64,000 nucleotides of DNA from an uncultured bacterium (GCA_903894565.1 CAITQP010000009.1:8576-72575), one strand, 5' to 3'; positions 1,525 through 62,786 are shown, counted from the stretch's first letter. The notes: generated by a model from the letters alone, not told the origin. Numbers and translations: made by a program.

Positions 1525-1543
1525 ACTTTACTTTGTCGGTTGG

Positions 1544-1679
1544 TATAAAAATACGCCCTTTGGCTTGTCTGCGAAATCTTGCTCGCGTAATAGATTTTTG
1601 TGCTTTATATTCTTTGCTTTGAAACCGCTCGCTCGGTCAGTCCTCGACTGCGCCAAAGGGGTATTTTTTACCAACCGAC
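1544..1679. terminator. long imperfect inverted repeat between convergent genes, candidate bidirectional terminator
   Basis: gtcggttggtataaaaatacgccctttggc at 1544-1573 is near-complementary to gccaaaggggtattttttaccaaccgac at 1652-1679. It sits between the stops of 1147..1524(+) and map(-). Confidence 0.4.
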
Positions 1680-1700
1680 GTGGTAATTCTGTATTCACAA

Positions 1701-6216: not shown

Positions 6217-6318
6217 CAGGAAAAGTCTACACCGGATCGTATAATTATTTATCAAATTTAAGAATGTTCAGTCCCCGAAATCAAATCGACGACCGAATCG
6301 AAACCGCATTTGCTTGCA

Positions 6319-6429
6319 CAAAAAAGCCACACACTACGGGAAGGACTCTCGGAGCGCGACGGCGCGAGAGGGAGGCGACATTTCTTCGGAAATGTACGCC
6401 GGTCCTTACTGTAGTGTGTGGCTTTTGTG
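6319..6429. repeat. structured GC-rich repeat element, family 2, copy A
   Basis: Core cggagcgcgacggcgcgag..gaggcga..tacgc.ggt is shared with 27678-27796. Flanked by a ~19-bp inverted repeat (caaaaaagccacacactac / gtagtgtgtggcttttgtg). Inner hairpin has a cttcgg loop. Confidence 0.6.
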
Positions 6430-6456
6430 TGCGCGCAGATGCGGGCAAGAACAGTC

Positions 6457-9258: not shown

Positions 9259-9795
9259 TTACGCAGCCTTCTTACCCTGCTTGCGACGGATAACCTCAGT
9301 ATCGTAACGGAATCCCTTACCCTTATATGGCTCAGGCTTTTTCATTGCGCGTACCTTGGCTGCAAATTGACCGACCATTTCTTTGTCTACACCAGTGATC
9401 GTGATGTTGTTCTTCTCAGCAGTAACCGTGAGGCCTGTTGGGATTGGGACAACGACACCGTGAGAGAATCCAAGTGCGAGGTTGAGGTCTGTACCTTTGA
9501 CTTCACTCTTAAATCCAACTCCTTCGAGAATGAGTTTCTTCGCGTATGGAGTGTTTACACCGGCAAGCATGTTTTTGACATGTGATGCGTATGTGCCCCA
9601 GAGTGCACGAGAAAAGATGTCTGAATCATTCTTTGGTTTGAGAGTGACATAGCCACCGTCAATGAGAATGATGACATCAGGTTTGACCTCGCGAGTGAGA
9701 GTGCCTTTCGGACCTGTAACTGTGAGGACACCAGCGTCGAGTTTGACCTCTGTACCGGCTGGAATTGGGATGGGTTGTTTAGCGATTCGTGACAT
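9259..9795 (-). CDS. rplF: 50S ribosomal protein L6
   Basis: 178 aa with the two-domain L6 pattern (MSRIAKQPIPIPAGTEV...). Confidence 0.9.
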   Translation of the reverse strand: MSRIAKQPIPIPAGTEVKLDAGVLTVTGPKGTLTREVKPDVIILIDGGYVTLKPKNDSDIFSRALWGTYASHVKNMLAGVNTPYAKKLILEGVGFKSEVKGTDLNLALGFSHGVVVPIPTGLTVTAEKNNITITGVDKEMVGQFAAKVRAMKKPEPYKGKGFRYDTEVIRRKQGKKAA

Positions 9796-9800
9796 ATAAT

Positions 9801-10187
9801 TTACCAGATAGAGAACAATACCTCGCCGCCGACGTGTTCCTTGCGAGCTTCTTTGTCAGTCAGAATGCCTTTCGGAGTTGAAAGGACGAGCAATCCCTTG
9901 CCATTCTTGATTGACCTAATATCCTGCGCGCCAGCGTACATACGACGTGACGGCTTCGAGATGCGAACAACTTCATTGATTTTTGGGATTCGGTCGACAG
10001 CAATGAGAGAAACCTCAAATACTGGTCGTCCGCGACGTGATTTCTTTGTAATAGCACCGACAAAGCCTTCTTTCGAAAGTTTTTGTGCGATTGCGAGACA
10101 GAGCTTCGATTCTGGAACGACAACGACGTCGCGGAGTGCGCGATTGGCGTTTTTCATTCCTGTGAGCATATTTGATACTGGATCCAT
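9801..10187 (-). CDS. rpsH: 30S ribosomal protein S8
   Basis: 128 aa with the S8 pattern (MDPVSNMLTGMKNA...LLVLSTPKGILTDKEAR..GGEVL). Confidence 0.9.
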   Translation of the reverse strand: MDPVSNMLTGMKNANRALRDVVVVPESKLCLAIAQKLSKEGFVGAITKKSRRGRPVFEVSLIAVDRIPKINEVVRISKPSRRMYAGAQDIRSIKNGKGLLVLSTPKGILTDKEARKEHVGGEVLFSIW

Positions 10188-10205
10188 AGATTTACTTTAG
10201 AGTGA

Positions 10206-10391
10206 TTACCAAGACGACTTACGGACGCCCGGGATCATGCCTTCATTGGCAAGTTCACGGAAACAGATTCGACAAAGTCCGAAATCACGCATAAAACCTC
10301 GACCTCGGCCACACTTAAAACAACGATTCTTCGCCCTTGTTGAGAACTTCGGCGTGCGCGTAGCGCGATATTTTGTTGATGTCTTTGCCAT
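10206..10391 (-). CDS. rpsZ: 30S ribosomal protein S14 type Z (zinc-binding)
   Basis: 61 aa MAKTSTKY...[23 protein letters not shown] with a CxxC..CxxC zinc ribbon. The upstream ATG at 10424 is rejected as a spurious extension. Confidence 0.85.
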
Positions 10392-10591
10392 AGTGAAAAT
10401 AGGAGGCCCGCCAGCGCGTATCACGTGTTTGTTCTTTATATCCCTAGAGCAGGAGAAACCTAGGAAACTAAAGGAGAAAAACGGACGCCACTGACTTAAT
10501 CTGCCTCGACGCTCATATTATCAGATTTTCGCTTCGTGTCAACTCACCTCACCCACCACGATCACTATCTTATGCAGATTACCACATTCTA

Positions 10592-10620
10592 TTGACATTA
10601 GCATCTATAGAGTGTATAAT
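10592..10620 (+). promoter_or_regulatory. consensus sigma70-like promoter (TTGACA-17-TATAAT)
   Basis: ttgaca at 10592-10597, 17-nt spacer, tataat at 10615-10620, about 24 nt upstream of the ATG at 10644. Confidence 0.5.
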
Positions 10621-10643
10621 GATAATACAACCAAAAATAAGTT

Positions 10644-10913
10644 ATGTTCTCAACTAAAAATTTGTTAAGCCCAGGAGCACTATTCGGGCATTTCGCAACA
10701 CTTGTGCAGATCGTACTGGTATTTACCGTGCCTACGATTCTGCCACTGCGCTTTTTGTTTTTTTCCCTGATTCCAATCGGAGTCAGCGAAATGATGTTCC
10801 TACTTGGAGCATTCGGACTTGCTAAGCAAAAGAGGGCGGCATTCGTGCTGTTCATATTAGCAGGAATGATGATCGTAGCAACAATGTTTCAATTATTTTT
10901 CTTGCGCAAGTAA
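10644..10913 (+). CDS. small hydrophobic membrane protein
   Basis: 89 aa with three hydrophobic segments, directly behind a consensus promoter. Confidence 0.4.
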   Translation: MFSTKNLLSPGALFGHFATLVQIVLVFTVPTILPLRFLFFSLIPIGVSEMMFLLGAFGLAKQKRAAFVLFILAGMMIVATMFQLFFLRK

Positions 10914-10969
10914 CAGCCCCTCAACCTTATTCTTAAGCAGGCACTATCAATTAGTGTCTGTTTTTGCAT

Positions 10970-11806
10970 CTACTCCTCGATGTGAGTTCTCACGAGTGAG
11001 TACAAACAAGCCTCAATACCAAAAGCCTGCCCAATATCGTGCGCAAATTGTCGAACATAAAATCCGCTCGAAACAGTAAGCTCAACTTTGACCGTGAGTA
11101 ACTCATCAGGTAGGTCTCGGGCACACTGTGTCCACGTCTCAAGAATTTCGGCTTGACGAAAATCACCCTGAACAATACTCGTGAGTTTTTGGACTCGATC
11201 AAGTACTTCAGCTCGAGTGCGTGAGCCGACCGTGAGGTCGGTGTATGAAATGAGCTCCACATCATGTTTCGGCAAAAGAACCTCATTCCCCGCCCGCGCA
11301 TGCGTATGAAGCTGAATACCATCTACCGTCTTTGAAGAATATGCTGGATACTGTTGTTGGAATTTACCGATCATTTTTTTAAGAAATGCTTCAACGTGCG
11401 CAGAAATTTCCAAACATTCTTTTGAAAAGGCAACTCGTCGCGCGTGCTCGCGCGCGAGCTTCTCGGCGCCAAGCGCCTGCGAAAGGCCTTCTTCAAAAGA
11501 ATGTTTGGAAATTTCTGCGCAGGTAGAAGGAATACCCAACAAATCATATGTATCAGTTGATACACTAAAAATAATTTCGGCTACATACGTTTTAGAGAGT
11601 CCGCTGTAAGCGTCTTTGTTTTTACATTCCTCACCCACGAGGATAATCAGTTCACCTTCCGCGGCTGGGTCAAGTCGCCCCGCATACGTCATCGGAACAC
11701 TCGCATCAATCCCTTCGCTCGCGCGGAGTCGCTCCAAACAAACAAGCGGGGTTTCTCCCCACTCTTTGTATACGCGATATACGTTTTTTATACCTTCGCT
11801 TGCCAC
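10970..11806 (-). CDS. truB: tRNA pseudouridine(55) synthase TruB carrying an in-frame 41-aa insertion encoded by a palindromic repeat element
   Basis: MTYAGRLDPAAEGELIILVGE...KTYVAEI.FSVSTDTYDLLG and MIGKFQQQYPAYSSKTVDGIQLH match the TruB GxLDP and GxIxQxPPxYSAxK motifs. The frame is continuous through the 123-bp repeat at 11398-11520. Confidence 0.7.
   Translation of the reverse strand: MASEGIKNVYRVYKEWGETPLVCLERLRASEGIDASVPMTYAGRLDPAAEGELIILVGEECKNKDAYSGLSKTYVAEIIFSVSTDTYDLLGIPSTCAEISKHSFEEGLSQALGAEKLAREHARRVAFSKECLEISAHVEAFLKKMIGKFQQQYPAYSSKTVDGIQLHTHARAGNEVLLPKHDVELISYTDLTVGSRTRAEVLDRVQKLTSIVQGDFRQAEILETWTQCARDLPDELLTVKVELTVSSGFYVRQFAHDIGQAFGIEACLYSLVRTHIEE
11398..11520. repeat. structured repeat element, family 1, copy 1 (inside the truB coding sequence, in frame)
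   Basis: 80-bp core ttttgaaaaggcaactcgtcgcgcgtgctcgcgcgcgagcttctcggcgccaagcgcctgcgaaaggccttcttcaaaag is flanked by a perfect 22-bp inverted repeat gcgcagaaatttccaaacattc / gaatgtttggaaatttctgcgc. Length 123 = 41 codons. Confidence 0.7.
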
Positions 11807-12366
11807 GCCGTGTACGCCTCCAGAATCATTTGCTCAACTGTCGGAATATCATTCACTTTTGTATCAATCACCAAATCAAAATGGCTCGGGTCCTGGTAAT
11901 TTTCAATGGCGTAATATTTGTTGTAACGTTCTTTCTCACTCGCAAGTCGCTCAGAAAGTCGTGTCTTCACGTCGATGAGTGTCTCTGACATTTCCTCCTT
12001 GCGTTCAGATTTCTTGGCTTGAATATCGCCGAACACACGAGCACCCGCCGTATCCAAATCAAGATTCAAAAATACTTTGAATGAATCAGGTGCGAAAAAC
12101 CATCCAATACGTGAATCAATCACAAAATTGTTATTGCTATCCATGAAGGCTTTTTGCTTGGCATCGATTTCACGATCAACCGCTGGGTCATTTTCTGCAA
12201 GGAGGTTGAGTTCAACGATAGTCAGCCCACGCTCACTCGCCATCGCACGCATGAAGTCCCCAGCCGAGTAGTGCGGATAGCCGAGCGCTGTGGCCACACG
12301 CTTGGCAGCGGTTGATTTGCCTGAACCGAGCATGCCACAGATGGTGATGATGTTGCGCTTTTGCAT
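11788..12366 (-). CDS. cmk: cytidylate kinase-like nucleoside monophosphate kinase (P-loop)
   Basis: ITICGMLGSGKST Walker A and overall CMP-kinase-like layout. Start chosen at MQKRNIITICG. Confidence 0.5.
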   Translation of the reverse strand: MQKRNIITICGMLGSGKSTAAKRVATALGYPHYSAGDFMRAMASERGLTIVELNLLAENDPAVDREIDAKQKAFMDSNNNFVIDSRIGWFFAPDSFKVFLNLDLDTAGARVFGDIQAKKSERKEEMSETLIDVKTRLSERLASEKERYNKYYAIENYQDPSHFDLVIDTKVNDIPTVEQMILEAYTAWQAKV

Positions 12367-12446
12367 AGGCGAAGAATAGCACGACTCGAGCAAAATAAAA
12401 AATAACCACCCAATCCTGAGTAGTTATTTTCTATTATTATTTATAT

Positions 12447-13013
12447 TTAATCTACGGAGAGACTGTTCTCAGTAGCAAATAGCTGTAGTTGGAAAAGGCC
12501 AACTTCCTCAATACCAAACCTGACAAAGATATCGAGCAGCAGTAGTAACTGTTGGCAATATTTTCGTTCTTTAGGGTCCTTTTTGGTCTCTTTCTCAGCC
12601 ACAATCTTTGAACGAATGATCTCACCCTCCTCGACAATCCATTTTTTAAAGTTATCTTCAATTTTTTTCACATACCAATCAACCAACTGTTGATTGGGCT
12701 TAAGTGACCTTTTCAGCATCACTATTTTATGGGGATAAAATCCCCCGAGGTCCATCTCCCTTTTTATCGTCAAGAATAGAACGAAGACAAACTCGTCTAT
12801 TGACCTTTTTTGCAGTAGGGTCAATTTCTTTTTGCAAAAAAGGTACTCCGCGAATATCTCGCGGTTTATTGATGTTAGCCAGGTAATCCTTTTGTGTAAA
12901 CCTGGAAGACCAATCCCTAGGTCCTGCTTCTCAAACAGATACCTTTGAAAAAAATACCGAGCCAAAAAAAATACGGCGGGTAGAACTAAGAAAATCAATG
13001 CTAGTTTGCTCAT
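12447..13013 (-). CDS. hypothetical membrane-anchored protein (AT-rich)
   Basis: ORF track entry. Start chosen at MSKLALIFLVLPAVFF, an N-terminal TM segment. Composition clearly lower GC than the ribosomal neighbours. Confidence 0.45.
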   Translation of the reverse strand: MSKLALIFLVLPAVFFLARYFFQRYLFEKQDLGIGLPGLHKRITWLTSINREIFAEYLFCKKKLTLLQKRSIDEFVFVLFLTIKREMDLGGFYPHKIVMLKRSLKPNQQLVDWYVKKIEDNFKKWIVEEGEIIRSKIVAEKETKKDPKERKYCQQLLLLLDIFVRFGIEEVGLFQLQLFATENSLSVD

Positions 13014-13121
13014 GTGAACAATTGTTTTGTTGTGTGAAATTTTATTTACACTACAACATATCCACATATATAACAAGAGCCACACGTGAGTGTGGCTCTT
13101 GTTATATACTATGAAAATTGA

Positions 13122-13682
13122 TTATTTCTTCTTCTTTACATCCTCTTCCTTTTTGAAAGGAACACCGATGAGTTCGAAGAATGCGAGACCTTCTGCCTTT
13201 GTCTTTGCACTCGAGACGATTGTGACAGAGAGACCGAAGACATCCTTGATATCTTCATCTGCAGTTTCAGGGAAGATTGTGTGTTCCTTGATACCGAGTG
13301 TGAGGTTACCGATCGAGTCAACAGCTGAAGGATTGAATCCACGGAAGTCCTTCGTGCGAGGGACTGCAATGTTGAAAAACTTTTCAAGAAATCCGTACAT
13401 GCGAGGACCGCGGAGTGTTACAGAAACACCGACTGGGTCGCCCTGACGAATCTTGAATGTTGCGATTGATTGCTTTGCACCACGGAGTGCAGTCTTCTGT
13501 CCGGTGATCTTGGTCAAACGGTCAGCAACGAGATCGTTGTGATTCTTGTTACGCTTCATTGCGTTTCCAGTTCCGGAACCAACAACAACCTTCTGGAGCT
13601 TTGGAGCTCCCATGACGTTCTTGTAGCCAAACTTTGGCTTCAAAACTTCGTATGATTTTTGTGCTTTTTCTTTTACAGTCAT
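13122..13682 (-). CDS. rplE: 50S ribosomal protein L5
   Basis: MTVKEKAQKSYEVLKPKF start and L5 signature regions. Trimmed from ORF 13122..13745. Confidence 0.9.
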   Translation of the reverse strand: MTVKEKAQKSYEVLKPKFGYKNVMGAPKLQKVVVGSGTGNAMKRNKNHNDLVADRLTKITGQKTALRGAKQSIATFKIRQGDPVGVSVTLRGPRMYGFLEKFFNIAVPRTKDFRGFNPSAVDSIGNLTLGIKEHTIFPETADEDIKDVFGLSVTIVSSAKTKAEGLAFFELIGVPFKKEEDVKKKK

Positions 13683-13683
13683 A

Positions 13684-13989
13684 TTATACTTCCTGTCCGC
13701 TCTTCTTAGCGATGCGGATCTTCTTTCCATTAACATCCTGAGCACCCAAACGAGTTGGCTTGCCGGACTTTGGATCGAGGATCGCGACGTTTGAGCGATT
13801 TACTGGGTGAGCAATGTCCACCATCTGTCCCTTACCACCACGGGTAGTACTCTTCTGGTGACGCTTCTTCATGTTGAGACCCTCGACGAGAACTTTGTTC
13901 TCCTTTGGGAATACTGCGAGGATTTTGCCTTTTTTACCAGCATCCTTGCCTTTTGTGACTATTACGTTGTCTCCTTTTTTGATATTCAT
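13684..13989 (-). CDS. rplX: 50S ribosomal protein L24
   Basis: MNIKKGDNVIVTKGKDAGKKGKI KOW motif. Confidence 0.9.
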   Translation of the reverse strand: MNIKKGDNVIVTKGKDAGKKGKILAVFPKENKVLVEGLNMKKRHQKSTTRGGKGQMVDIAHPVNRSNVAILDPKSGKPTRLGAQDVNGKKIRIAKKSGQEV

Positions 13990-14012
13990 ATAATTGAAAG
14001 GTAGATTAATCG

Positions 14013-14390
14013 TTAGATAACCTCAGGGGCAAGAGAAATAATCTTCTGGTATCCGCGCTCTCCGAGCTCGCGTGGAATTGGTCCGAAAATGCGTCCAGCA
14101 ATTGGCTCGAAGCGCTGCTTTCCAGAACCGATGAGCACAACTGCGTTGTCATCAAAACTGATGTATGAACCATCTTTGCGGCGCATAGCTTCGCGCTGAC
14201 GGACAACAACTGCGTGGTGAACACCCTTCTTTTTGACACCCTTGCGAGGTTCAGCCACTTTGACCGAAATCACAACGACATCGCCGATGCGTGCGTAGCG
14301 ACGCTTGGATGAACCAAGCACCTTGAAGACCATGCCGACTTTTCCTCCGGCGTTGTCTGCTATTTTGACTATTGTTTGTGGCTGAATCAT
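14013..14390 (-). CDS. rplN: 50S ribosomal protein L14
   Basis: MIQPQTIVKIADNAGGK start, 125 aa. Confidence 0.95.
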   Translation of the reverse strand: MIQPQTIVKIADNAGGKVGMVFKVLGSSKRRYARIGDVVVISVKVAEPRKGVKKKGVHHAVVVRQREAMRRKDGSYISFDDNAVVLIGSGKQRFEPIAGRIFGPIPRELGERGYQKIISLAPEVI

Positions 14391-18193: not shown

Positions 18194-18295
18194 AAATTTT
18201 GGTTTTAAAAGAAAAGAAATACGTGGTCATTCATTTTGGACCACAGCTCTAAAGACTCTGAGCTTCTCGAGAGCTGTGGTTCAAAACCCATAATA

Positions 18296-18326
18296 CAAAA
18301 GCCCCCCGCGTACGCGGGGGCTTTTG
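18296..18326 (-). terminator. rho-independent terminator hairpin (second of two after rplB)
   Basis: aaaagccccccgcgtacgcgggggcttttgt. Confidence 0.5.
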
Positions 18327-18455
18327 TATTATTGAATCAAAGATTTATACAATAAAAGCAAACCCCCGCGCCGAGCGGATAATAATGAGGGTGCTAATAA
18401 TTGTGTTCTGAGCGAACATATTTTTAATTTAGTATTCTGGGGAGAAAAAGTCAAG

Positions 18456-24179: not shown

Positions 24180-24341
24180 AATGAATATATCAATATTGCT
24201 ATAGTGCTGTCAATGAGCTTTATTAAGATTTACGATACCAAATCCGATATCAATTCTATGCAAAGAAATTGTCGAGGAATAGCAAAAGGCGCGCCCTCCG
24301 GGCGCGCCTTTTGCTTCTTTCATTTGTTTGTCGTCCGAACC

Positions 24342-27561: not shown

Positions 27562-27677
27562 GTAGTGATTAAAATAAAAAGCTAGGCTACACCCAGAAGC
27601 AACTCGAACAATATCTAGGGGGAACTCGCTTAGGTCAGTACTATACATAGACTCTCGAGAAAATGCAAGAGGGAGGC

Positions 27678-27796
27678 GGGAAAACCACAAAATGCCCTTG
27701 TGAAAGTATCCGCGGAGCGCGACGGCGCGAGCGTGAGGCGAAAATCCTTCAGGATTTTACGCTGGTACTTTCACAAGGGCATTTTGTGGTTTTCCC
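27678..27796. repeat. structured GC-rich repeat element, family 2, copy B, in the rpsL leader
   Basis: Perfect 31-bp inverted repeat gggaaaaccacaaaatgcccttgtgaaagta / tactttcacaagggcattttgtggttttccc. It flanks the conserved core cggagcgcgacggcgcgagcgtgaggcga and the hairpin gcgaaaatcc-ttca-ggattttacgc. Confidence 0.65.
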
Positions 27797-27798
27797 GC

Positions 27799-29973
27799 CT
27801 ACACCTTGAATTTGCTCGACAAGTAGCCTTTTGAAACTGTGGCAGGCATGTCGGTGACCGCTGTTTGGTAGGTGCCGTCGGGCATTTTGCGATCAATGCG
27901 AATCTTGTAGTCGGCGTTTGGAAGGAGTGCGTAGTATCTTCCTTGCGCGTCGGCGATACGGTGCATGACTTCAACACCCGTTGAAACAGATGCTATACGA
28001 ATAAGCGCAAATGAAAGTGGTAAACCTGTTTTCGCATCCGTAATATCTCCATATGGTCGTGAATGTTTGCCGTATTGTCGGAGGAAGAAAAGTCCAACAT
28101 ACAAAACAAGCACAATAATGTTATATGGCTTCGGCGCAAAGACTGTTGCGAGCATTGCGATAACAAATCCCGTGCCGAAAAGCACGTCAGATACTCGACG
28201 AAAGATTTTGCCGCGACGGGAATAGAACTTCATGAGGTTCTGCTGATTTTTTGCAAATTCATTCCAATCGAAATTCATTGGATCCATTGGAATATTTTTG
28301 ATCACAACATCCCCCGCGTTCTCAACAGTGAAGTGTTCACCGAAATACAAGTCACGGTAGAGTTCGTCATGGTCACGTCCGACGAGCTGTTGTGATGGGA
28401 AAAGATAATTCGTTTTTTGAGCAAAGATTGAGTACACACCTGGCTTTGGCACAACGAATCCGAATCGTCCATCAAGGTCGGTCAAATTGGAAACAACATC
28501 TTCTCCTTCAATAGTTCGAAGTGTTACATATGCAGGATCAAGTGGTTGCTTTGTAATACTGTCATAGACAGTACCCCACGGCTGATGACGTTTGCGCAAA
28601 CCAAGTGCGGCAAGAAGAAGCGACCACAAACGAGCTGGGATCAAGAAAATTTCAGAGAATGAAAGTGGATTCAAAAAGAGTGCCGTGAAAATTGAGGTGG
28701 CAGCACTTGCGACTACTCCGACTGTCGCTACAACAGCTTCGGCTTTTGTCGCAGTACCTGTTCCGAGAATTGCTTTTATTTTTTTGTACGTCGTGCCAAC
28801 CGTCTGCGTCGTATTACAGTAACTATTTTTTACTTGCCCAATAACTTCTCCGACGATGTCAGTTGCAGTAGAAATCGGACAACCACCACCACTTCCAGTT
28901 GTTGTCGTCGTATGAACAATTGCGTAGACACACGTTCCTGATTGACGAAAATTGCTTGCCGTTGGGTCGGTACACTGTGTGCTTGCATAGGTGCAAGGAA
29001 AAGCGCCGAGATAATTGCTCGCGGTTGCATCAAGACACAGTGGTGGTGGTGCATAGGTACACGCACCAGTCGCTCCATAGTTTGTAGCTGCTGTATCAGT
29101 ACACGTTGTTGCGTACGAACACGGCAATGCTCCGCCATAGTTTGTAGCTGAACGATCCCGACACAATAATGCATACGTACAAGCACCCGAAGCACCGTAG
29201 TTTGTCGCCGTTGTATCAGTACAAATACGCGGATAGACACATGATCCAATTGCGCCATAATTTGTTGCAGTTGTATCAGTACACGTCAGAGTATAGGTAC
29301 ATGGTAATGATCCACCAAAATTCGTCGCCGTTCGGTCCTGACACAATAATGCGTAAGTACAAATACCAGCCGAACCATAATTGGTAGCGGTCGTGTCGGT
29401 ACAGAGTGTTGGATACACACACGGCAATGATCCTCCGTAGTTGAGCGCAGTTCGATCGAGACAAATGAGTGGAGGAGGCGGAGTTGTGTGTGTCGTGACA
29501 ACAACAGTTGGGCGCCAATCAGTCTTCACACAGGCGTCAGTCTTCGTACAATCAAACAGCATCCAACCTCCACCGGACACCCATGCATATCCAGAAAATT
29601 CTCCAGTGCTTGGGTTGATTGTGACTCCTCCGTGCGTAGGGTTGAAGTTCACCCAACTCGCGGTCGAGCCCCACGCATCTCCCGTAACTGTACCGCTCGT
29701 TGTGTTGTGCACTCCCCCGCTTACTGGCGCAAGATTAATCCAACCCAATTTGTTTGACCAGATATATCCGAAAAGCGTGGTGTCACTCACCGAAACTCCT
29801 CCACCATTTGTAGGTTTCCAATTGACGATTGAATACGCCGAGCAGTCTTCATTCGAACACAATCGAGCCGTGTGACTCGTCGCGTCTATTCCTCCCGTCG
29901 AAGCAAAAAGTGCGACCGGAATGAGAAATCCGATAACACTCGCAATCAGAATGAAAAGACGTGAGAGACGCAT
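27799..29973 (-). CDS. large membrane/surface protein with nine 20-aa Cys-containing tandem repeats and C-terminal TM/beta-sandwich-like region
   Basis: 724 aa. N-terminal signal/TM. GY(I/A)W..GW(I/V).F(N) repeats. 9x C.D.TATNYG....C.Y... repeats. Several TM helices later in the sequence. Confidence 0.6.
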   Translation of the reverse strand: MRLSRLFILIASVIGFLIPVALFASTGGIDATSHTARLCSNEDCSAYSIVNWKPTNGGGVSVSDTTLFGYIWSNKLGWINLAPVSGGVHNTTSGTVTGDAWGSTASWVNFNPTHGGVTINPSTGEFSGYAWVSGGGWMLFDCTKTDACVKTDWRPTVVVTTHTTPPPPLICLDRTALNYGGSLPCVYPTLCTDTTATNYGSAGICTYALLCQDRTATNFGGSLPCTYTLTCTDTTATNYGAIGSCVYPRICTDTTATNYGASGACTYALLCRDRSATNYGGALPCSYATTCTDTAATNYGATGACTYAPPPLCLDATASNYLGAFPCTYASTQCTDPTASNFRQSGTCVYAIVHTTTTTGSGGGCPISTATDIVGEVIGQVKNSYCNTTQTVGTTYKKIKAILGTGTATKAEAVVATVGVVASAATSIFTALFLNPLSFSEIFLIPARLWSLLLAALGLRKRHQPWGTVYDSITKQPLDPAYVTLRTIEGEDVVSNLTDLDGRFGFVVPKPGVYSIFAQKTNYLFPSQQLVGRDHDELYRDLYFGEHFTVENAGDVVIKNIPMDPMNFDWNEFAKNQQNLMKFYSRRGKIFRRVSDVLFGTGFVIAMLATVFAPKPYNIIVLVLYVGLFFLRQYGKHSRPYGDITDAKTGLPLSFALIRIASVSTGVEVMHRIADAQGRYYALLPNADYKIRIDRKMPDGTYQTAVTDMPATVSKGYLSSKFKV
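28923..29478. repeat. 60-bp tandem coding repeats (about 9 units) encoding the Cys-x-D-x-T-A-T-N-Y-G repeat
   Basis: Periodic DNA similarity and periodic protein sequence CTDTTATNYG..G.CTY.. within the CDS. Confidence 0.6.
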
Positions 29974-31858: not shown

Positions 31859-32446
31859 ATGGATTACTTCACAGCAAAAACATTCGCTCTTCCCGAGCTC
31901 AAAGGAATCTCAGCCAAGAACGTCGAAGAGCATCTCAAGCTCTACGCTGGCTACGTAAAATTTTCGAATTATATCCAAAACCAAATTCGAGAATTGAGTA
32001 AAGATGCCGAAAAGAATTCGTATGAGATCGCCGAACTCCAGCGTCGCTTCGCCTTCGAACACGATGGAATGAAGAATCACGAGATCTATTTCTCACAATT
32101 TGAAGGTGGTCCTGCCTCACTCATGAGTAGTGGTGCGCTCGCTCAGCAAATCGAAAAAGATTTCGGTAGCTTCGATGCATTCCTCGCTCGATTGAAAGCG
32201 CTCGCAATGACACGCGGAGTCGGATGGGCAATGCTTTACTACTGCAGTGAATCAGGACACTTGCTCACGCAGTGGGTAGACGAGCAACACATGGGTCACC
32301 TTTCGGGACCAAAACTCATTCTCGCCATCGACATGTGGGAACACTCATATGTCTATGATTATCCGACGAGCGAAAAGAAAAAATACGTTGAGGCTTTTTT
32401 TGAGAATTTGAATTGGGGTAAAGTTGAAGAGCGATTCAGTAAATAA
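31859..32446 (+). CDS. sod: Fe/Mn-family superoxide dismutase
   Basis: AIDMWEHSYV (D/H ligands), NHEIYF and an N-terminal His. All four metal-ligand positions look present. Confidence 0.75.
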   Translation: MDYFTAKTFALPELKGISAKNVEEHLKLYAGYVKFSNYIQNQIRELSKDAEKNSYEIAELQRRFAFEHDGMKNHEIYFSQFEGGPASLMSSGALAQQIEKDFGSFDAFLARLKALAMTRGVGWAMLYYCSESGHLLTQWVDEQHMGHLSGPKLILAIDMWEHSYVYDYPTSEKKKYVEAFFENLNWGKVEERFSK

Positions 32447-32460
32447 GGTTAGTAAAATTA

Positions 32461-32556
32461 AAAAACTCTTTTGAAAAGGCAACTCGTCGCGCGTGCTCGC
32501 GCGCGAGCTTCTCGGCGCCAAGCGCCTGCGAAAGGCCTTCTTCAAAAGAGTTTTTT
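32461..32556. repeat. structured repeat element, family 1, copy 2; doubles as bidirectional terminator between sod and comEC
   Basis: Identical 80-bp core to copy 1. Flanked by aaaaactcttttgaa / ttcaaaagagttttt, with T-runs on both strands. Confidence 0.7.
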
Positions 32557-34057
32557 AATTTTGCTCCACTTTTTCACTGTTCCATTTTCGATACAGCCAA
32601 TATATTAAACACACATATATAAATAAGCATAGCCATAGTGGAAAATGTTTAATGACAACTGAGGCGAATGGAACACGCGCGAAGAATTGTACGGCTCCTG
32701 TGATGTAGCTGAGGAGATAGTGTGTGATGAGCGAGGCGGGATATGCGAGTCCTAGACTGAATGCTCCGATGAGTCCCGCAAGTGCGCCGAAGCCCATGGC
32801 GAGTGGTACGGCAGGCAGGATTGCTACGTTTGCAGGAAGTGCGATGAGTGAGAGCGTGCCCATTTTGTAGAGGATGAACGGCAAGACTCCCGTTTGTGCG
32901 CCGAGGGTCACTGACATTAATTCGCGCAGTGGAATAATGTATGCGACTTTTTTGGGAACACGCGCGAATGCACGCTCGAGCACCGGAGTGACAAAGAGGA
33001 TACCGAGCGTAGCGAGGTATGAGAGTTGGAATGATACGTCGTAAACGAGATATTTTGGATCGTAGAGAATCATCAAAAATCCGGCGACGATGAGCGCGCG
33101 AAATGCATCGTACGTGCGACCCTTGGTCCGTGCAAAAAGTCCAATGAGTGCCATGATGCCCGCACGGATTGCCGATGATTGCATGCCTGTCATTACGACA
33201 AAGAGCACGATACAGAGCGCCCCACTCGCCGAAGCGACGCGCATAGAGAGACCAAGAATATCGACGAAAAAACTTTGCAGTGCGTTTGCGACAACTGTCA
33301 CGTTGTATCCCGAAAGTGCAATCATGTGAATCGTGCCAGTCGTGACGAGGTCGTCGCGAAATTGTGGATCAATGTTTGCTTTGACTCCGAGATTGAGACC
33401 GGCGAGAAGATCGGCTTGTGGTGCAGGCAAAATACGATGAAACGATTTTACAATTACATTTTTTACGGGAATCAAATGAGCGACAACCCAATTGCCATGA
33501 TTATGTTCGAGCACAGTCGCGCTCGCATTTTTGATTTGATACACAATGTTATTTTTATACAAATATGAAATGTAATCGAATTCAGTACCTTGATCGGTCA
33601 TGAAATTCTCGGGACGTGCGAGTGTGCCGTGCACAAGCACAGTATCGCCGTACGCGAGATTCATATTTGATTTCGTGCGAACAGAAAAACTGAGGCCGGG
33701 TGTTTCGAGCGTAAAACTATCTCCATATGATTTTGCCGACGGTTCGTCGACGATGAGTCCCTCGACCGTAACGCTTGTGCCGATATTATTTTCAAAATCT
33801 TTTGTATTTGGTTTAGCGATTTCTGCACGATATGCCCCGAGCACAAATGCACAGATGAAGAGACTCGCGAAGAGTGTGTATGATCTCGCCCTCTGGATGA
33901 AAGTGGCGATGATGAGGAGGCAAACGCCGACCGCCCCCGCGACGATAGTCGCGGGGGCGGTCATATGAGAAAGCGAAGCAAAAATAATTCCGGTGGCAAA
34001 GCCTACAATACCAGAAGCCAAATATACATCTATGTTTTGTGAGCGAGCGTGCTCCAT
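32555..34057 (-). CDS. comEC: ComEC/Rec2 family competence protein (membrane domain)
   Basis: 500 aa polytopic membrane protein. IHMIALSGYNVTVVA matches the competence-domain signature. Confidence 0.75.
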   Translation of the reverse strand: MEHARSQNIDVYLASGIVGFATGIIFASLSHMTAPATIVAGAVGVCLLIIATFIQRARSYTLFASLFICAFVLGAYRAEIAKPNTKDFENNIGTSVTVEGLIVDEPSAKSYGDSFTLETPGLSFSVRTKSNMNLAYGDTVLVHGTLARPENFMTDQGTEFDYISYLYKNNIVYQIKNASATVLEHNHGNWVVAHLIPVKNVIVKSFHRILPAPQADLLAGLNLGVKANIDPQFRDDLVTTGTIHMIALSGYNVTVVANALQSFFVDILGLSMRVASASGALCIVLFVVMTGMQSSAIRAGIMALIGLFARTKGRTYDAFRALIVAGFLMILYDPKYLVYDVSFQLSYLATLGILFVTPVLERAFARVPKKVAYIIPLRELMSVTLGAQTGVLPFILYKMGTLSLIALPANVAILPAVPLAMGFGALAGLIGAFSLGLAYPASLITHYLLSYITGAVQFFARVPFASVVIKHFPLWLCLFIYVCLIYWLYRKWNSEKVEQN

Positions 34058-34794
34058 TCGTGTTTCAAAGAATCTTCTTCTTGCTTACTAAATACTTTTT
34101 TGAACTTCGTTGCCTTCTTCCCTTTCACTCGTCGTTCACATTCTGCCCATGTCTTGTGTGTTTCAATCTTACCATCAAGCAGTGAGACATAGGAATACGC
34201 TGGTGCAGCTGAACTTGATTTTTTCTTGGCTTTTTTTTGCACAATTTTTTCGTCACTCGTGCCAGAAAATACAGAACCGCCAATGAGCTGTTCATATTGA
34301 TCGAGCGGACCAACGTAGAGAAGCTGTTGTGTCTTGTCGGCGCAATTGGTCGCAATGAGGTCGGCGCGCTCGTTGCCGAGGAGTCCGATGTGCCCGCCGA
34401 CTTTGTTCCACATGAGCGCATGCTTCATCTTCAGTCGCGTAACGAGCGCGCCGAGTTCTCGCCACAAATCCTGATTGAGCACGTCGTCCCCCGTTTTTGT
34501 TTTCCAGCCATTTTTCTCCCAGCCAAATACCCACCCCGTAATCCCTTGCAAAAGATATGCCGAGTCAGTATTCACCTCAATATCCCCCACGAGTTTGCGT
34601 GATTCCACATGCGCGAGCGCACCAAGCGCCGCAGCAATCTCCACGCGATTGTTCGTCGTGTGGTCTTCTCGTCCGCCGAGCTCGTACACTTTGCCGGAGG
34701 CATCAATCACTACCGCACCCCATCCCCCCGGCCCTGGATTGCCCCGCGAAGATCCGTCTGTAAATATCGTAATCGTGTTTTCTTTCATGAGCAA
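34030..34794 (-). CDS. rnhA: ribonuclease HI with C-terminal hybrid-binding (caulimovirus-VI-like) domain
   Basis: IFTDGSSRGNPGPGGWG and NNRVEIAA (catalytic D, E). C-terminal YSYVSLLDGKIETHKTWAECERRVKGKKATKFKKVFSKQEE resembles the HBD motif. Confidence 0.75.
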   Translation of the reverse strand: MLMKENTITIFTDGSSRGNPGPGGWGAVVIDASGKVYELGGREDHTTNNRVEIAAALGALAHVESRKLVGDIEVNTDSAYLLQGITGWVFGWEKNGWKTKTGDDVLNQDLWRELGALVTRLKMKHALMWNKVGGHIGLLGNERADLIATNCADKTQQLLYVGPLDQYEQLIGGSVFSGTSDEKIVQKKAKKKSSSAAPAYSYVSLLDGKIETHKTWAECERRVKGKKATKFKKVFSKQEEDSLKHEWSTLAHKT

Positions 34795-37411: not shown

Positions 37412-37420
37412 TGAGTAATA

Positions 37421-37449
37421 AAAATGGCACAACAATTGTGCCATTTTTA
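37421..37449. terminator. bidirectional terminator hairpin
   Basis: aaaatggcacaacaattgtgccatttt. Confidence 0.55.
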
Positions 37450-37458
37450 TTACCTATT

Positions 37459-41782: not shown

Positions 41783-42271
41783 TTATCGACTACTCGCTTG
41801 CCCGGCATGAGTAATTGTAACTGTTTTCGCACCACTTGTAGATGCAGCCTCTCGCACAACAAAAGTGCCGTCTTCTTCTGTATCACCTGTAAGTGAATCA
41901 AAAATAACATCACTACCTCCACCGGTAAGCGATATTGATGTAATCTCTGCAGAACGATCAATCAGTACTACGCGGTTATCTACGGCAGTAGACGAATATG
42001 TCGTACCAGAAAAGAGAACTGCTTTTGTCGTCTCGAGATGTACACCGTATTGAGATCCAGATTCATGAGCGAGCGTACGCGATCGAGCTTCGTCGAGAAG
42101 TGCAGTGACGTCTCCCACACCGTTATCAATCGCTTGATGCCCAAGAAATGTTCCAAGGTTCAACGCAACGACGCCAGACAAAATACCAATCACAACAATA
42201 CCAATCATAAGCTGAAGAAGCATGAAACCTCGTGATTTTTTTTGAGAGAAGAATGATTTCATACAATACAT
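41783..42271 (-). CDS. type IV pilin-like protein (Gln at +5)
   Basis: RG-FMLLQLMIGIVVIG prepilin-like N-terminus. Confidence 0.5.
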   Translation of the reverse strand: MYCMKSFFSQKKSRGFMLLQLMIGIVVIGILSGVVALNLGTFLGHQAIDNGVGDVTALLDEARSRTLAHESGSQYGVHLETTKAVLFSGTTYSSTAVDNRVVLIDRSAEITSISLTGGGSDVIFDSLTGDTEEDGTFVVREAASTSGAKTVTITHAGQASSR

Positions 42272-42274
42272 TTG

Positions 42275-43492
42275 TTATGACGAAAGTGTACTCACAAGAC
42301 CGTACATCGGTGAAATCATTGATACGGCAAAAAATCCAACGGCAGCCCCGATAAAAATCATAAGTATCGGCTCAACGATCGTTGAAAGATTCTTTGTTTG
42401 GGCATCCACCTCTTCTTCATAATACGTAGCAATATCGGCAAGCATCGATGTTAAGGCACCAGTCTCCTCGCCGACAGCAACCATCTCTCCCACCATGATT
42501 GGATACAGATCTGGTGCTCCTTTAAACACCGAAGAAAGTGTTTCTCCCTTTTGGAGAGCTATACTCGCGCGCTCAAGCACGTCTTTGTAGTATGAATTTT
42601 GCACAACATCTTTTGTGATTGAAAGGGCGCGTGTCATTTCTACGCCCGCAGACAAAAGTGACGAAAGTGTTCGAGCCGTGCGGGCAGTATTTACTTCCTG
42701 AACAATACTTCGAATCGCTGGAAAAGCCAGTGCGATGCGATCATTCGTTCGTTGCATTTGTTTAGAATTAAAAAAGTAGAAAAAAGCAGCAAATACAACA
42801 ACGAGACAATCAAGGAAAAAGATTGGATGAGTTGAAACAGCATCTGAAATCGTAATCACGAATTGAGTCGATGCTGGCAGTTTTGTTCCAAAATCCTTAA
42901 AAATTTTCGTTAGTGTCGGAACGACGAATACAAGCATCAATGCCCCAATAAGCAGAATCGCAGAAATGACAATCGTTGGATACATTAATGCTCCGCGAAC
43001 TTTGCGATTCAATTTATAACTTTTTTCAAGGTTGTCACCGATTTCCTTCAACGTCCCTGCAAGATTTCCTGATTCCTCACCCGCACGTACCATTGATACA
43101 ACAAGCGGAGGAAAAACATCGGCAAATTTTGCGAGACCTTCGGACAAAGTGCCTCCTTGATTGATCGTCGCAAGTAAACCATCAAAAATGGTGACAAGCA
43201 TCGCGTTCTTGTTTTGTTTCTTTTCGACTTCAAGCGCTCGAAACAACGGCAACCCAGCGGAAAGCATGCCCGCCAAGTTATGCATGAATACGATTTTTTC
43301 ATGCAAACTCACATGAGCGAAGATGCGAGAAAATCCAAGTGCTACTCGATTTTTAGGTATGATCTCATGAACAGTAATCGGGGTCTGTGCTCGTTCACGA
43401 AGTTCCTTTGCGACAGTAAAACGATCGGCCGCTTCAAGCGTGCCTTCGATTGTTTCTCCTTGCGCATCTCGCGCTGTATAAGCAAATAGCAT
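42275..43492 (-). CDS. pilC: type IV pilus assembly platform protein PilC (GspF family)
   Basis: 405 aa, two GspF repeats, 3 TM. Confidence 0.85.
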   Translation of the reverse strand: MLFAYTARDAQGETIEGTLEAADRFTVAKELRERAQTPITVHEIIPKNRVALGFSRIFAHVSLHEKIVFMHNLAGMLSAGLPLFRALEVEKKQNKNAMLVTIFDGLLATINQGGTLSEGLAKFADVFPPLVVSMVRAGEESGNLAGTLKEIGDNLEKSYKLNRKVRGALMYPTIVISAILLIGALMLVFVVPTLTKIFKDFGTKLPASTQFVITISDAVSTHPIFFLDCLVVVFAAFFYFFNSKQMQRTNDRIALAFPAIRSIVQEVNTARTARTLSSLLSAGVEMTRALSITKDVVQNSYYKDVLERASIALQKGETLSSVFKGAPDLYPIMVGEMVAVGEETGALTSMLADIATYYEEEVDAQTKNLSTIVEPILMIFIGAAVGFFAVSMISPMYGLVSTLSS

Positions 43493-45368: not shown

Positions 45369-45408
45369 AAAAAATAACCTGTCTCGAAATCGAGACAGGT
45401 TATTTTTT
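45369..45408 (-). terminator. rho-independent terminator downstream of the 440-aa secreted protein gene
   Basis: aaaaataacctgtctcgaaatcgagacaggttatttttt. Confidence 0.6.
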
Positions 45409-48759: not shown

Positions 48760-48791
48760 CAACCCCGCATTTGCGCGCAAATGCGGGGTTG
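48760..48791. promoter_or_regulatory. 32-bp perfect palindrome overlapping the -35 of the candidate nusA promoter (putative operator)
   Basis: caaccccgcatttgcgcgcaaatgcggggttg equals its own reverse complement. Lies in the divergent region between 48382..48696(-) and nusA(+). Confidence 0.5.
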
Positions 48792-50728: not shown

Positions 50729-50742
50729 TACTCAAGACTAAG

Positions 50743-50777
50743 AAAAAATCACGCCCCGAATCGGGGCGTGATTTTTT
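50743..50777 (+). terminator. rho-independent terminator after ppa
   Basis: aaaaaatcacgccccgaatcggggcgtgatttttt. Confidence 0.65.
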
Positions 50778-50814
50778 CTTTCATTTTTTGTAAAATTGTA
50801 TATACTCACACCAT

Positions 50815-51029: not shown

Positions 51030-51162
51030 CCGAGCAGGAACAAAAGCACACACCTCCTTTGAAGAAGGCCTTTCGCAGGCGCTTGGCGCCGAGAAGCCCG
51101 GCCGCGAGCACGCGGAACGGGTTGCCTTTTCAAAGGAGGTGTGTGTGCTTTTGTTCCTGCTC
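51030..51162. repeat. structured repeat element, family 1, copy 3 (reverse orientation) upstream of tig
   Basis: Core is the reverse complement of copies 1 and 2, with a few substitutions. Flanked by a perfect 34-bp inverted repeat ccgagcaggaacaaaagcacacacctcctttgaa / ttcaaaggaggtgtgtgcttttgttcctgctcgg. Confidence 0.7.
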
Positions 51163-51188
51163 GGTTTTTGTGTTAGTATGCGAAAACC

Positions 51189-52232
51189 ATGAAAAATACA
51201 ATCAAAAAATTAGCTAAGAGTGAAACCCAGATTGACGTAGTAATCCCAGCAGACGTATTTGAAAGCTACCGTGCGAAAGCGCTCAGTCGCGCAGGCGAGC
51301 ACGTCGAAATCCCTGGATTTCGCAAAGGCAAAGTGCCAGCAAACATTCTTGAAAAAGAGCTCAACCCAATGATGTTGCTCGAAGAAATGGCAGACATTGC
51401 AATCAACGAACACTTTCCAAAGATTTTGAAAGATGAGAAGATCGACGCTATCGGTCGCCCATCAATCACACTTACCAAGATCGCAAAAGATAACGACCTT
51501 GAGTTTACTGCGGTCGTTGCCACCCTTCCTGAAGTCAAACTTCCTGAATACAAAAAAATCGCGTCCGTTGAAAATAAAACTGTTGCCGATGTGACTGTCA
51601 CTGACGCTGAGCTCGACGAAGCAATCAAAGAACTCAAAAAGGCGCGCAAGCATAATGAAATTCATCAGTCAGGCGAGAAGCATGACCACGCAGAATTTGA
51701 GAAACTTGAATTCGATGCAACGCTTGATGATGAGTATGTGAAATTACTTGGTGAGTTCGAAAATGTTGACGCATTCAAAGTAAAATTCCGCGAAAACATC
51801 AAAGCTGAAAAGATTGCTCGAGATCTCGAGAAGCGCCGCATCGCAACGCTTGAAAAAATTGCCGAAGCAACGACGATCGAAATTCCTCAAGTACTGATCG
51901 AAAACGAAGCAGAGAATCTCATCAATCGTCTCAAGGCAGATATTGCTCAAGCTGGCATTCCATTTGAAGAATATCTCAAGCACGTGCAAAAATCAGAAGC
52001 TGATATCCAAAAAGATTTACTTCCTGATGCTGAGAAGCGCGCAAAGACAGAGCTTATCATGATGGAAATCGCCAAGGCAGAAAAACTCGAACCAAAGGCT
52101 GAAGAAGTTGAAAACGAAACCAAGCGTCTCATCCAAACATACCAAGACGCAGACCCACTCCGTGCTCGTATGTATGTTGCACACATGATGCTCAACGAAG
52201 AAATCTTTAAGTTCCTCGAAGCTCAGCAATAG
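51189..52232 (+). CDS. tig: trigger factor, apparently lacking the PPIase (FKBP) domain
   Basis: GFRKGKVP ribosome-binding signature. 347 aa with N- and C-terminal TF domains only. Confidence 0.7.
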   Translation: MKNTIKKLAKSETQIDVVIPADVFESYRAKALSRAGEHVEIPGFRKGKVPANILEKELNPMMLLEEMADIAINEHFPKILKDEKIDAIGRPSITLTKIAKDNDLEFTAVVATLPEVKLPEYKKIASVENKTVADVTVTDAELDEAIKELKKARKHNEIHQSGEKHDHAEFEKLEFDATLDDEYVKLLGEFENVDAFKVKFRENIKAEKIARDLEKRRIATLEKIAEATTIEIPQVLIENEAENLINRLKADIAQAGIPFEEYLKHVQKSEADIQKDLLPDAEKRAKTELIMMEIAKAEKLEPKAEEVENETKRLIQTYQDADPLRARMYVAHMMLNEEIFKFLEAQQ

Positions 52233-57334: not shown

Positions 57335-57380
57335 TACTCATAGTATGCCATATATGGGCACAAGATAGAAAAATCCTTGG

Positions 57381-59078: not shown

Positions 59079-59222
59079 ATAATTTAAGTATTTGTATTAT
59101 CTCACACGCGCCTCCTAATGAAAATCAAACCCAGTACTACCCGCCGACTCCGTGCACATGTACCACACAACCACAAACAAAATCATTGGAATGATAATCA
59201 TATATTGCTATTAGCTATTATT

Positions 59223-59292
59223 TCTCACAATTAATCCGCAAGTGACTCTTGTGAACTAAAAAGTGAGGGCTATAAATTGGTTTATAGATAGC
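59223..59292 (-). promoter_or_regulatory. conserved leader/promoter motif shared with 62737-62786 (hairpin plus ttaattgtgaga(a)ataat)
   Basis: ctcacaattaatccgcaagtgactcttgtgaactaaaaagtgagggct here versus ctcacaattaacccgcgagcgacactcgtggactaaatagtgggctc upstream of paralog 3. The stem change caag/cttg versus cgag/ctcg is compensatory. Confidence 0.5.
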
Positions 59293-59300
59293 CCATGTAA

Positions 59301-60059: not shown

Positions 60060-60187
60060 AACGAATTAATTTATGCATATAATAAAATGATTTGAGAGTA
60101 ACGTCAAAATACTCTACATTCTGATTCTAAAATACCCTTTATTTATAAAGCTTATTTTAAACATGTGATATTATTTCGTCAAAATTC

Positions 60188-60217
60188 TTGACATAAATAT
60201 AGCCCAAAAGGTATACT
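60188..60217 (+). promoter_or_regulatory. sigma70-like promoter (TTGACA-18-TATACT) placing the TSS at or next to the TrmB ATG (leaderless)
   Basis: ttgaca at 60188-60193 and tatact at 60212-60217. ATG at 60224. Confidence 0.45.
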
Positions 60218-60223
60218 TTTGAC

Positions 60224-62721: not shown

Positions 62722-62736
62722 ATATTTTTTGATTAT

Positions 62737-62786
62737 CTCACAATTAACCCGCGAGCGACACTCGTGGACTAAATAGTGGGCTCATC
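62737..62786 (-). promoter_or_regulatory. conserved leader/promoter motif, copy upstream of paralog 3
   Basis: See 59223-59292. Contains the hairpin ggctcatc-ggaaat-gatgagcc and a TGaGATAAT extended -10-like element 14 nt before the ATG. Confidence 0.5.

Follow-up and report, generated by a model that had tools for sequence, protein, structure and literature searches.

A hairpin repeat lying in frame within the truB gene of a CPR-type bacterium shares only its tip with other copies

Results and Discussion

The truB gene and the palindrome within it

We analysed a stretch of 64,000 nucleotides from an uncultured bacterium (GCA_903894565.1, CAITQP010000009.1:8576-72575; hereafter the window, which is the only part of the genome in view), in which truB, the gene for tRNA pseudouridine-55 synthase, contains a long palindromic element within its reading frame. 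The host is a bacterium of the Candidate Phyla Radiation (CPR)/Patescibacteria type with a tiny genome. As an earlier note on this DNA had claimed, the open reading frame (ORF) of truB runs unbroken across the element and encodes 278 aa on the minus strand (10970..11806). Its product is TruB according to its Pfam domain, its conserved motifs and its predicted fold. TruB_N matches with 76.8 bits (cut-off 27.3; 3e-21) in two stretches with the insert between them, and the catalytic GRLDP motif (G43-R44-L45-D46-P47), Y156/S158 of YSSK and G248/Y250/R252 of GFYxR are invariant across 70 orthologues. Moreover, an AlphaFold2 model with a mean predicted local distance difference test score (pLDDT) of 89.4 has 2ab4, 1k8w and 1r3e, all of them TruB structures, as its top Foldseek matches (E 5e-16 to 2e-15, TM 0.55-0.60). 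No Pfam match to TruB_C_2 or a PUA domain was found in the window protein, which is the short CPR form of the enzyme and, like most CPR orthologues, stops after the catalytic domain; the C-terminal PUA domain is present in TruB of Escherichia coli and Thermotoga maritima and is not needed for membership of the family.

The complete palindrome spans 125 bp (11397..11521), encodes C96-H137 and consists of 30-nt perfect arms (11397-11426 and 11492-11521) with 65 nt between them. The 123 nt at 11398-11520 delimited in the earlier note do amount to 41 codons, A97-H137, with the peptide quoted there, and the perfect inverted flanks that it described are real, although the inverted match extends over 30 nt and the 22-bp flanks do not belong to the repeat family. 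In the window, the 22-mer GCGCAGAAATTTCCAAACATTC has exactly two occurrences compared with 0.00 expected, and the palindrome folds with -77.7 kcal/mol (z = -10.6). At its centre lies a core (11420..11498, plus strand and hence antisense to truB) of the form TTTTGAA-AAGGCAAC...GGCC-TTCTTCAAAA, which is assigned to subtype AB and would be translated as SFEEGLSQALGAEKLAREHARRVAFSKE. This core of about 79 nt folds into two GC-rich hairpins upon a short base stem: P2 (11434..11458, plus strand) has 10 bp with a bulged T and a TGCT loop, and P3 (11465..11477, plus strand) reads GGCGC-CAA-GCGCC. On either side follow locus-specific arms, of which the 5′ one in truB sense (11499..11521, minus strand) encodes CAEISKH(S) and is not common to the two other copies of the window, B and C, while the 3′ one (11397..11419, minus strand) encodes the native-like TruB residues (E)CLEISA(H). 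Peptides encoded within the insert include SFEEGLSQALGAEK and VAFSKECLEISAHVEAFLK.

The insert is placed directly ahead of the conserved GxIxQxYPxYSSK motif, in agreement with the earlier description. Structure prediction gives it a pLDDT of 51-71, compared with more than 90 for the body of the protein, with helices at residues 104-112 and from 126. An assembly error can be ruled out as its source, since the insert was found in five independent assemblies. The proposal that a repeated palindromic element has entered TruB in frame and without stops is thus borne out, and we are highly confident that what is seen here is a dispersed hairpin repeat, inserted in frame and translated, of which the core alone is the common unit.

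Its net size is smaller than the 41 aa first proposed. Insert-free orthologues exist and an alignment with them confirms an indel, yet one of about 32 aa: the DLLG..YP segment has a mode of 36 aa among 70 TruB orthologues compared with 68 aa in the window protein, and TruB of T. maritima has 3 residues opposite 35 of the window protein. Edited versions of the window protein were scored against a profile of 37 insert-free orthologues. The intact protein reached 357.4 bits, versions without the core and one arm 365.7-367.9 bits and versions without all 41-42 residues 353.6-355.0 bits, so that deleting everything fits 11-14 bits worse than deleting the core and one arm. These scores indicate a net insertion of about 32-35 aa, with the other arm taking the native length. 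The best fit was obtained when the core was deleted together with arm 11499..11521 (367.9 bits compared with 353.6 for deleting everything). The 3′ arm may therefore be the native one, which is favoured weakly and by 2 bits; HMMER aligns this arm (KECLEISAH), FSKECLEISAHVEAFL, to the native EERECNVTEEEIREAI of T. maritima TruB (chain residues 88 onward). Arm 11499..11521 is probably an inverted copy of the other truB arm.

The common unit of the repeat family

The view that the repeat is a 123-bp unit including 22-bp flanks does not hold, because only the core of about 79 bp is common to its copies. The window has three copies of this repeat, which we call family 1: copy A in truB and two intergenic ones. 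Copy B (32437..32579, plus strand) lies between the convergent genes sod (31859..32446) and comEC (32555..34057), has arms of its own (AAAATTAAAAAACTC...) and A-tract/T-tract flanks, and its core is 96% identical to the truB copy at 32461-32555. Copy C (51030..51164, minus strand), whose core defines subtype C, has its own arms of 24-26 nt and is located about 25 nt upstream of tig (51189..52232); its core identity is 86-90%, inverted, near 51037-51138. The outer flanks (22-23 nt at truB) are unrelated among copies A, B and C; they are locus-specific and co-evolve with truB. A genome scan revealed seven further copies, all in one related metagenome-assembled genome (MAG), ELA106 (JBAWZD01), and these likewise combine a conserved core with arms that are perfect or near-perfect within a copy and unrelated between copies. 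Over 83 nt, the core in the window truB is identical to copy B of ELA106.

Alignment of 11 family-1 copies by position relative to the core covered 50 pairs, or 550 pair cells, and yielded 56 invariant columns, which are confined to the core. Cores are 86-100% identical among paralogous copies, and the arms have no common sequence. Standard pairs occupy 92% of the 550 cells compared with 75.7% in shuffles (0/500), and both-sided changes were seen in 30/50 pairs. No copy has an unpaired position among the 12 core-adjacent arm pairs (columns 17-28), whose 132 cells include just one G-U. Within the core, P2 shows two covarying pairs across the copies (CG/UA 5:5; GC/CG 5:4) and P3 is invariant in 11/11. 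Intergenic copies B and C have orthologues in ELA106, and in both cases the arms show compensated changes between the two genomes, among them one in the ELA106 orthologue of copy B (L003); neither copy is flipped.

About 16 elements of this and other families were seen in all. The truB case is the sole intragenic one, since no real ORF spans any other element. Two further candidates for intragenic copies, at 34361-34454 and 42238-42334, were rejected as chance repeats without the GC-rich core. When metagenomes were scanned with a conserved 20-mer, 72 loci were found, all of them chance matches in genomes of 59-74% GC except L016 (JGI Ga0209542_10100568), an unrelated low-GC contig. There, an element similar to family 1 lies at 400-530 directly after the groEL stop codon, with the P3 hairpin and TGCT loop as in family 1, an AT-rich P2 and its own 26-nt arms. 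A scan of viral contigs gave one chance match, a BLAST search against phages gave none, and a tRNA scan found none.

Exchange of the core among close relatives

To interpret the comparison with other genomes, it should be considered that the truB variants were located via hits to full-length proteins, so that intact reading frames are over-represented in the sample, and that the relatives are metagenome assemblies, whose contigs tend to break at the repeat. In the cluster of P0003, the TruB fragments P0122 and P0123 start and end exactly at the element, consistent with such breaks.

Four further truB alleles carry an insert at the identical site (P0002-P0005; at the DNA level L008/L009, L007, L010 and L005). 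The window truB combines arm type 1 with a core of subtype AB that is antisense to truB, L007 arm type 1 with a sense core of subtype C, L008 arm type 2 with an antisense core of subtype C, and L005 arm type 2 with a sense core of subtype AB. The flipped core is translated as SFEKATRRACSR...SSKE compared with SFEEGLSQAL...FSKE. Because the changes in orientation accompany changes in subtype, the core was replaced and not simply inverted in place. The earlier note had held that orthologues with the same 41 residues would speak against an insertion; this applies only in part, since the nearest relatives do have an insert at the same site, but in half of them the reading frame runs through the core's reverse complement. 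Openness of the frame in both orientations needs no special cause, since four of the six reading frames contain no stop within the element. Every difference between the arms of truB orthologues is matched by a compensating change on the opposite arm (2/2 in arm type 1, window versus L007; 3/3 in type 2, L005 versus L008), and each compensated change alters both encoded peptides.

The allele of L010 (1345-1505) equals that of L007 plus 72 in-frame nt, which match the left flank and arm of locus C (antisense to the start of tig) in the window and in ELA106; the junction lies at TTTTGA, which is common to the truB and C loci. Judged by this composition, L010 would be the footprint of copy-choice/template switching or ectopic conversion that began in the homologous core, overshot into the flank of the donor and returned at microhomology, with copy C representing the donor type of locus. 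The truB gene is also a mosaic around the insert, where the flank groups P0001 with P0003 (83%) and the C-terminal part groups it with P0002 (89%). Within a lineage, one orientation was seen: P0121, which was found on 16 contigs, is identical to P0003 across the insert and has the same orientation, and L008 and L009 agree with each other.

Hairpins at the same TruB loop in other lineages

Several other lineages have hairpins at the equivalent position. In L083 (P0034), perfect arms of 33 nt enclose an unrelated core that is again a double hairpin, and in L084 (P0019) perfect arms of 27 nt flank a 53-nt insert. L088 (P0030) combines 22-nt perfect arms with an 18-nt loop, and L085 has a composite of three short hairpins. 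In L086 (P0006), the nearest ‘insert-free’ orthologue, the same codons still hold a hairpin resembling a terminator, with 12+4 bp and a 12-nt loop. No hairpin is present in L087 (P0010), which keeps GCTTTTGAAGAAGGTCTC, a 13-nt run identical to the end of the family-1 core and probably a deletion remnant. Short similarities at equivalent positions connect the arms found in the window, in L083, L084 and L086, and in arm type 2 (p 0.004-0.03 in 4/15 comparisons), which suggests that the truB stem could be older than the present cores.

A hairpin universal to truB was rejected, because the baseline orthologues L089 and L090 have none at this loop. At 4542-4571 of L089, a natural perfect palindrome with 14-nt arms (GGGCGATTTCCGCC/GGCGGAAATCGCCC) encodes GDFRQAEI, a conserved TruB motif.

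Origin and maintenance of the element

We propose that a small, non-autonomous GC-rich double-hairpin cassette (family 1, about 79 bp) sits at the apex of a long, perfect and locus-specific palindrome in a permissive loop of TruB. There it would be transcribed and translated as a net excursion of about 32 residues, poorly ordered and partly helical, most likely without a function of its own and thus as a selfish or neutral passenger. Its movement would not be of the classical transposon type with terminal inverted repeats (TIRs) and target-site duplications; rather, one locus could receive a copy from another, in either orientation, by template switching or ectopic conversion, for which the homologous cores and the self-complementary TTTTGAA/TTCAAAA ends would provide the priming. 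The stem arms may have been built from local sequence, with one arm native-like and the other its inverted copy, and might be held perfectly Watson-Crick by fold-back templated copying, that is, arm-to-arm conversion. For template switching or conversion as the mechanism of the cassette we see even chances. To the statement as a whole, namely a transposase-independent hairpin cassette resembling the Rickettsia palindromic elements (RPEs), with conversion-type spread, locally made stems and a translated, tolerated passenger, we incline slightly.

Several observations weigh against this proposal. ELA106 carries a whole family-1 hairpin (L001 226-358) at a site where the window (about 52237) has none; here arms and core behave as a single unit of presence or absence, and the arms cannot be traced to the flank in view. 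The candidate origin of arms as inverted duplications of the target was rejected for this clean occupied/empty pair, and since the pair gave no support, arms derived from the target are indicated solely by the truB protein comparisons. Furthermore, arms and apex both differ between the window and ELA106 at two orthologous intergenic sites, which means that whole hairpins are also replaced. The homology of arms across lineages rests on short similarities with modest p-values. A neighbour-joining tree scatters the hairpin-bearing, long-insert TruBs, so that gains, or gains plus losses, must be recurrent. Finally, a trans-acting enzyme could be encoded outside the 64 kb in view.

Alternatively, the structure itself could be selected in the truB transcript or DNA, for example as a processing or stability site for RNase III or RNase Y, or as an attenuator with which the rplE-cmk-truB unit ends. 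In that case the compensated changes would be the product of purifying selection on the pairing, which is perfect despite both arms coding, and several lineages do have hairpins at these same codon positions. Moreover, intergenic copies lie at gene ends, and a second hairpin family contains a sub-hairpin capped with C(UUCG)G that shows three compensatory pairs between copies. We nevertheless regard selection on structure as unlikely. The arms have almost exclusively Watson-Crick pairs, as the one G-U in 132 arm cells illustrates, unlike RNA helices that evolve under selection; both core orientations and two subtypes are tolerated; and L089 and L090 do without the hairpin. In addition, no T-run follows the truB hairpin on either strand, so that it lacks the combination of GC-rich stem and T-run expected of an intrinsic terminator, and none of the elements has an Rfam match at gathering thresholds or E<=1, the weak matches being leader/sRNA families only, on plain terminator palindromes. 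The intergenic copies with A/T-tract flanks are placed where bidirectional terminators are expected, and from their position and tracts they may have terminator activity. The missing T-run at the truB hairpin, compared with the A/T tracts at copy B, fits a role as candidate bidirectional terminators for the intergenic copies and not for the intragenic one.

A second possibility is a classical miniature inverted-repeat transposable element (MITE) or RPE-type element, in which the whole palindrome of about 123 bp is mobile and inserted once into truB by means of a trans-acting transposase, and the arms differ through age. Its size, palindromy, in-frame insertion and lack of coding capacity resemble those of RPEs and MITEs (PMC10969869), and the joint presence or absence of arms and core at L001 would be expected from it. 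This explanation appears rather improbable to us, since uniform ageing cannot account for copies whose arms are unrelated while their cores remain 86-100% identical. Terminal inverted repeats conserved among copies, as expected of a MITE, were not found, only the inner TTTTGAA/TTCAAAA being common, and there is no direct repeat indicative of a target-site duplication at the occupied/empty pair (L001 226-358 versus window 52237) or at the truB junctions. None of the 21 window ORFs tested (20 large ones and truB; 64 kb in view) encodes a transposase, recombinase, invertase or Y1 transposase/REP-associated tyrosine transposase (RAYT). Moreover, the same arms hold different cores and orientations in relatives.

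Intragenic invertons that recode proteins have been documented (bioRxiv 10.1101/2023.03.11.532203), and the truB element resembles them in being an ORF segment bounded by inverted repeats, with both orientations found among close relatives and the frame open in each; the 30-nt repeats could allow a programmed, reversible flip of the core that provides two TruB isoforms per population. Such an inverton is very improbable, because each flip comes with a switch of core subtype and thus represents a replacement, the orientations differ only between lineages with no mixture seen within a population (compare P0121 with P0003, and L008 with L009), no invertase was found in the window and the orthologous copies B and C are unflipped. 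That the insert is untranslated, being removed from the mRNA or bypassed by the ribosome at a very stable GC-rich hairpin within the coding region, as precedented by the mitochondrial ‘byp’ elements and gene 60 of T4, is hardly credible, since all nine variants seen at the DNA level (windowA, L005, L007, L008, L010, L083, L084, L085 and L088) have stop-free inserts whose lengths are multiples of three, including the 72-nt piece from an intergenic/antisense region, a pattern expected only if the ribosome reads the insert, albeit in a sample biased toward intact frames.

Relation to known repeats

Rickettsia palindromic elements, to which the earlier note had likened the insert, are an apt comparison for the way of working. 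RPE-1 to RPE-10 are palindromic repeats inserted in frame into housekeeping genes (Ogata et al. 2000, summarised in PMC10969869). Like them, the present elements are non-autonomous palindromes of about 100-150 bp that occur between genes and, at a site compatible with the fold, in frame within a housekeeping gene, and both lack obvious TIRs, target-site duplications or an associated transposase. However, Rickettsia belongs to the Alphaproteobacteria and the present host is of the CPR type. Here conservation is confined to the apical 79 bp or so, on a long stem that is peculiar to its locus; at one site the core occurs flipped and swapped between subtypes, accompanied by a footprint of the template-switch kind; and one of about 16 elements is intragenic, compared with nearly half in some RPE families. 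From sequence comparison, we would describe the truB element as an intragenic palindromic repeat resembling RPEs, in which the hairpin tip is what is conserved and for which there is comparative evidence of conversion-type mobility.

The REP/BIME/REPIN and SPRITE repeats are likewise short hairpin repeats concentrated at the 3′ ends of genes, and some REP-type and SPRITE repeats look like or act as Rho-independent terminators (PMC3733652; PMC10969869). In contrast to the elements described here, with their locus-unique stems and no RAYT in the 64-kb window, the REP and REPIN repeats have stem sequences common to their copies (GTAG/CGTC heads) and depend on RAYTs. Mitochondrial GC clusters, including optional in-frame ones in yeast var1, and the double-hairpin elements of Allomyces mitochondrial DNA are GC-rich modules in AT-richer genomes with conversion-like spread. 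They share with the truB element a GC-rich (double-)hairpin design and the ability to sit in frame in a protein gene, but they are organellar, have conserved ends and lack locus-specific perfect stems of 20-30 bp.

Template switching is known to create stems, to introduce several compensatory changes at once and to invert loops (PMC8794818). One-step multiple compensation, local extension of stems, inversion of loops and perfect Watson-Crick stems in the hairpins attributed to it (PMC8794818; PMC5453318) all have counterparts here. The loops described in those studies have 4-8 nt and lie in rRNA and miRNA genes, whereas the truB stem carries a structured, dispersed-repeat cassette of 65-80 nt in a protein-coding gene. 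Full-text searches of the literature gave no description of such elements in Patescibacteria/CPR.

The truB element extends an RPE-like phenomenon to an ultra-small genome of the CPR type, where comparison among relatives reveals the behaviour of the element. What moves would be the tip of a hairpin, overwritten from other copies in either orientation, and the stem stays complementary though both of its arms code. It could provide a natural test bed for whether template switching during replication can create, maintain and mobilise hairpins, and also for the insertion tolerance of an essential RNA-modifying enzyme. On the practical side, the repeat breaks metagenome contigs at truB and could mislead gene callers or analyses of recombination. 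More speculatively, and as a tentative idea at most, these CPR genomes might contain several families of transposase-free ‘apex cassettes’, structured and GC-rich, which disperse, invert and supplant each other at the tips of perfect palindromes via replication template switching, with a genome-wide process that makes and perfects palindromes supplying the stems. If so, this process would be strong enough to build and keep perfect hairpins of 22-33 bp in the gene of an essential enzyme, repeatedly, at the same TruB loop and in separate lineages.

Other hairpins and neighbouring features of the window

Two further hairpin families have the same architecture as family 1. Family 2 is represented by element D (6304..6444, plus strand), which lies between convergent genes and joins the conserved double-hairpin apex to a locus-specific 43-nt stem, and by element E (27655..27819, plus strand), with 60-nt arms at 88% identity of which 35 nt are perfect. 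Its sub-hairpin is capped by C(UUCG)G or C(UUCA)G, and the three compensatory pair changes mentioned above distinguish D from E. The family-3 element (1528..1686, minus strand) is also placed between convergent genes. In ELA106, a family-3 hairpin (L001 3822-3965) occupies the site at which the window (48760-48791) has a plain terminator palindrome with 16-nt arms (CAACCCCGCATTTGCG/CGCAAATGCGGGGTTG). Downstream of secY, ELA106 (L005 7176-7282) carries a different apex, termed F4, on 25-nt perfect arms, compared with family-2 copy D in the window; the outermost arm bases look alike at this site, which suggests that the apex may have been replaced within an older stem.

Many perfect palindromes are also found at gene ends of the window (50740-50780, 45369-45408, 13067-13108, 37415-37453, 18290-18332, 24281-24315 and 33929-33962). 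They have arms of 15-20 nt, loops of 0-9 nt and A/T-tract flanks, and their stems are unusually long and perfect for intrinsic terminators.

The truB gene itself is embedded, together with cmk or a gene similar to that for guanylate kinase, in the ribosomal-protein operon, where the two genes lie between rplE and rpsN/rpsH, both in the window (9259-14390) and in L083-L090. Between rplE and cmk, the window has a segment (12382-13118) that is missing at the syntenic locus of ELA106; it contains an ORF for a hypothetical protein (12447..13085, 212 aa) that has no Pfam match, and at its edge lies the palindrome at 13067-13108, which has 19-nt arms. At 10592-10620 on the plus strand, a perfect sigma-70 consensus (TTGACA-17-TATAAT, 12/12) precedes a small ORF (10644..10913) that opposes the direction of the ribosomal-protein and truB genes, and in most related loci truB is followed by a comparable small gene in antisense.

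Further repeats were observed within or next to coding regions. Six tandem units of 60 nt, one interval being doubled, lie at 28984-29403 inside a 724-aa ORF with a CarboxypepD_reg domain. Three paralogous proteins of 565-581 aa with treble-clef zinc-finger ends are encoded at 55631-62721, and conserved 43-nt repeats (59223-59265 and 62736-62778) are located on the 5′ side of two of these zinc-finger paralogues, just upstream of their start codons.

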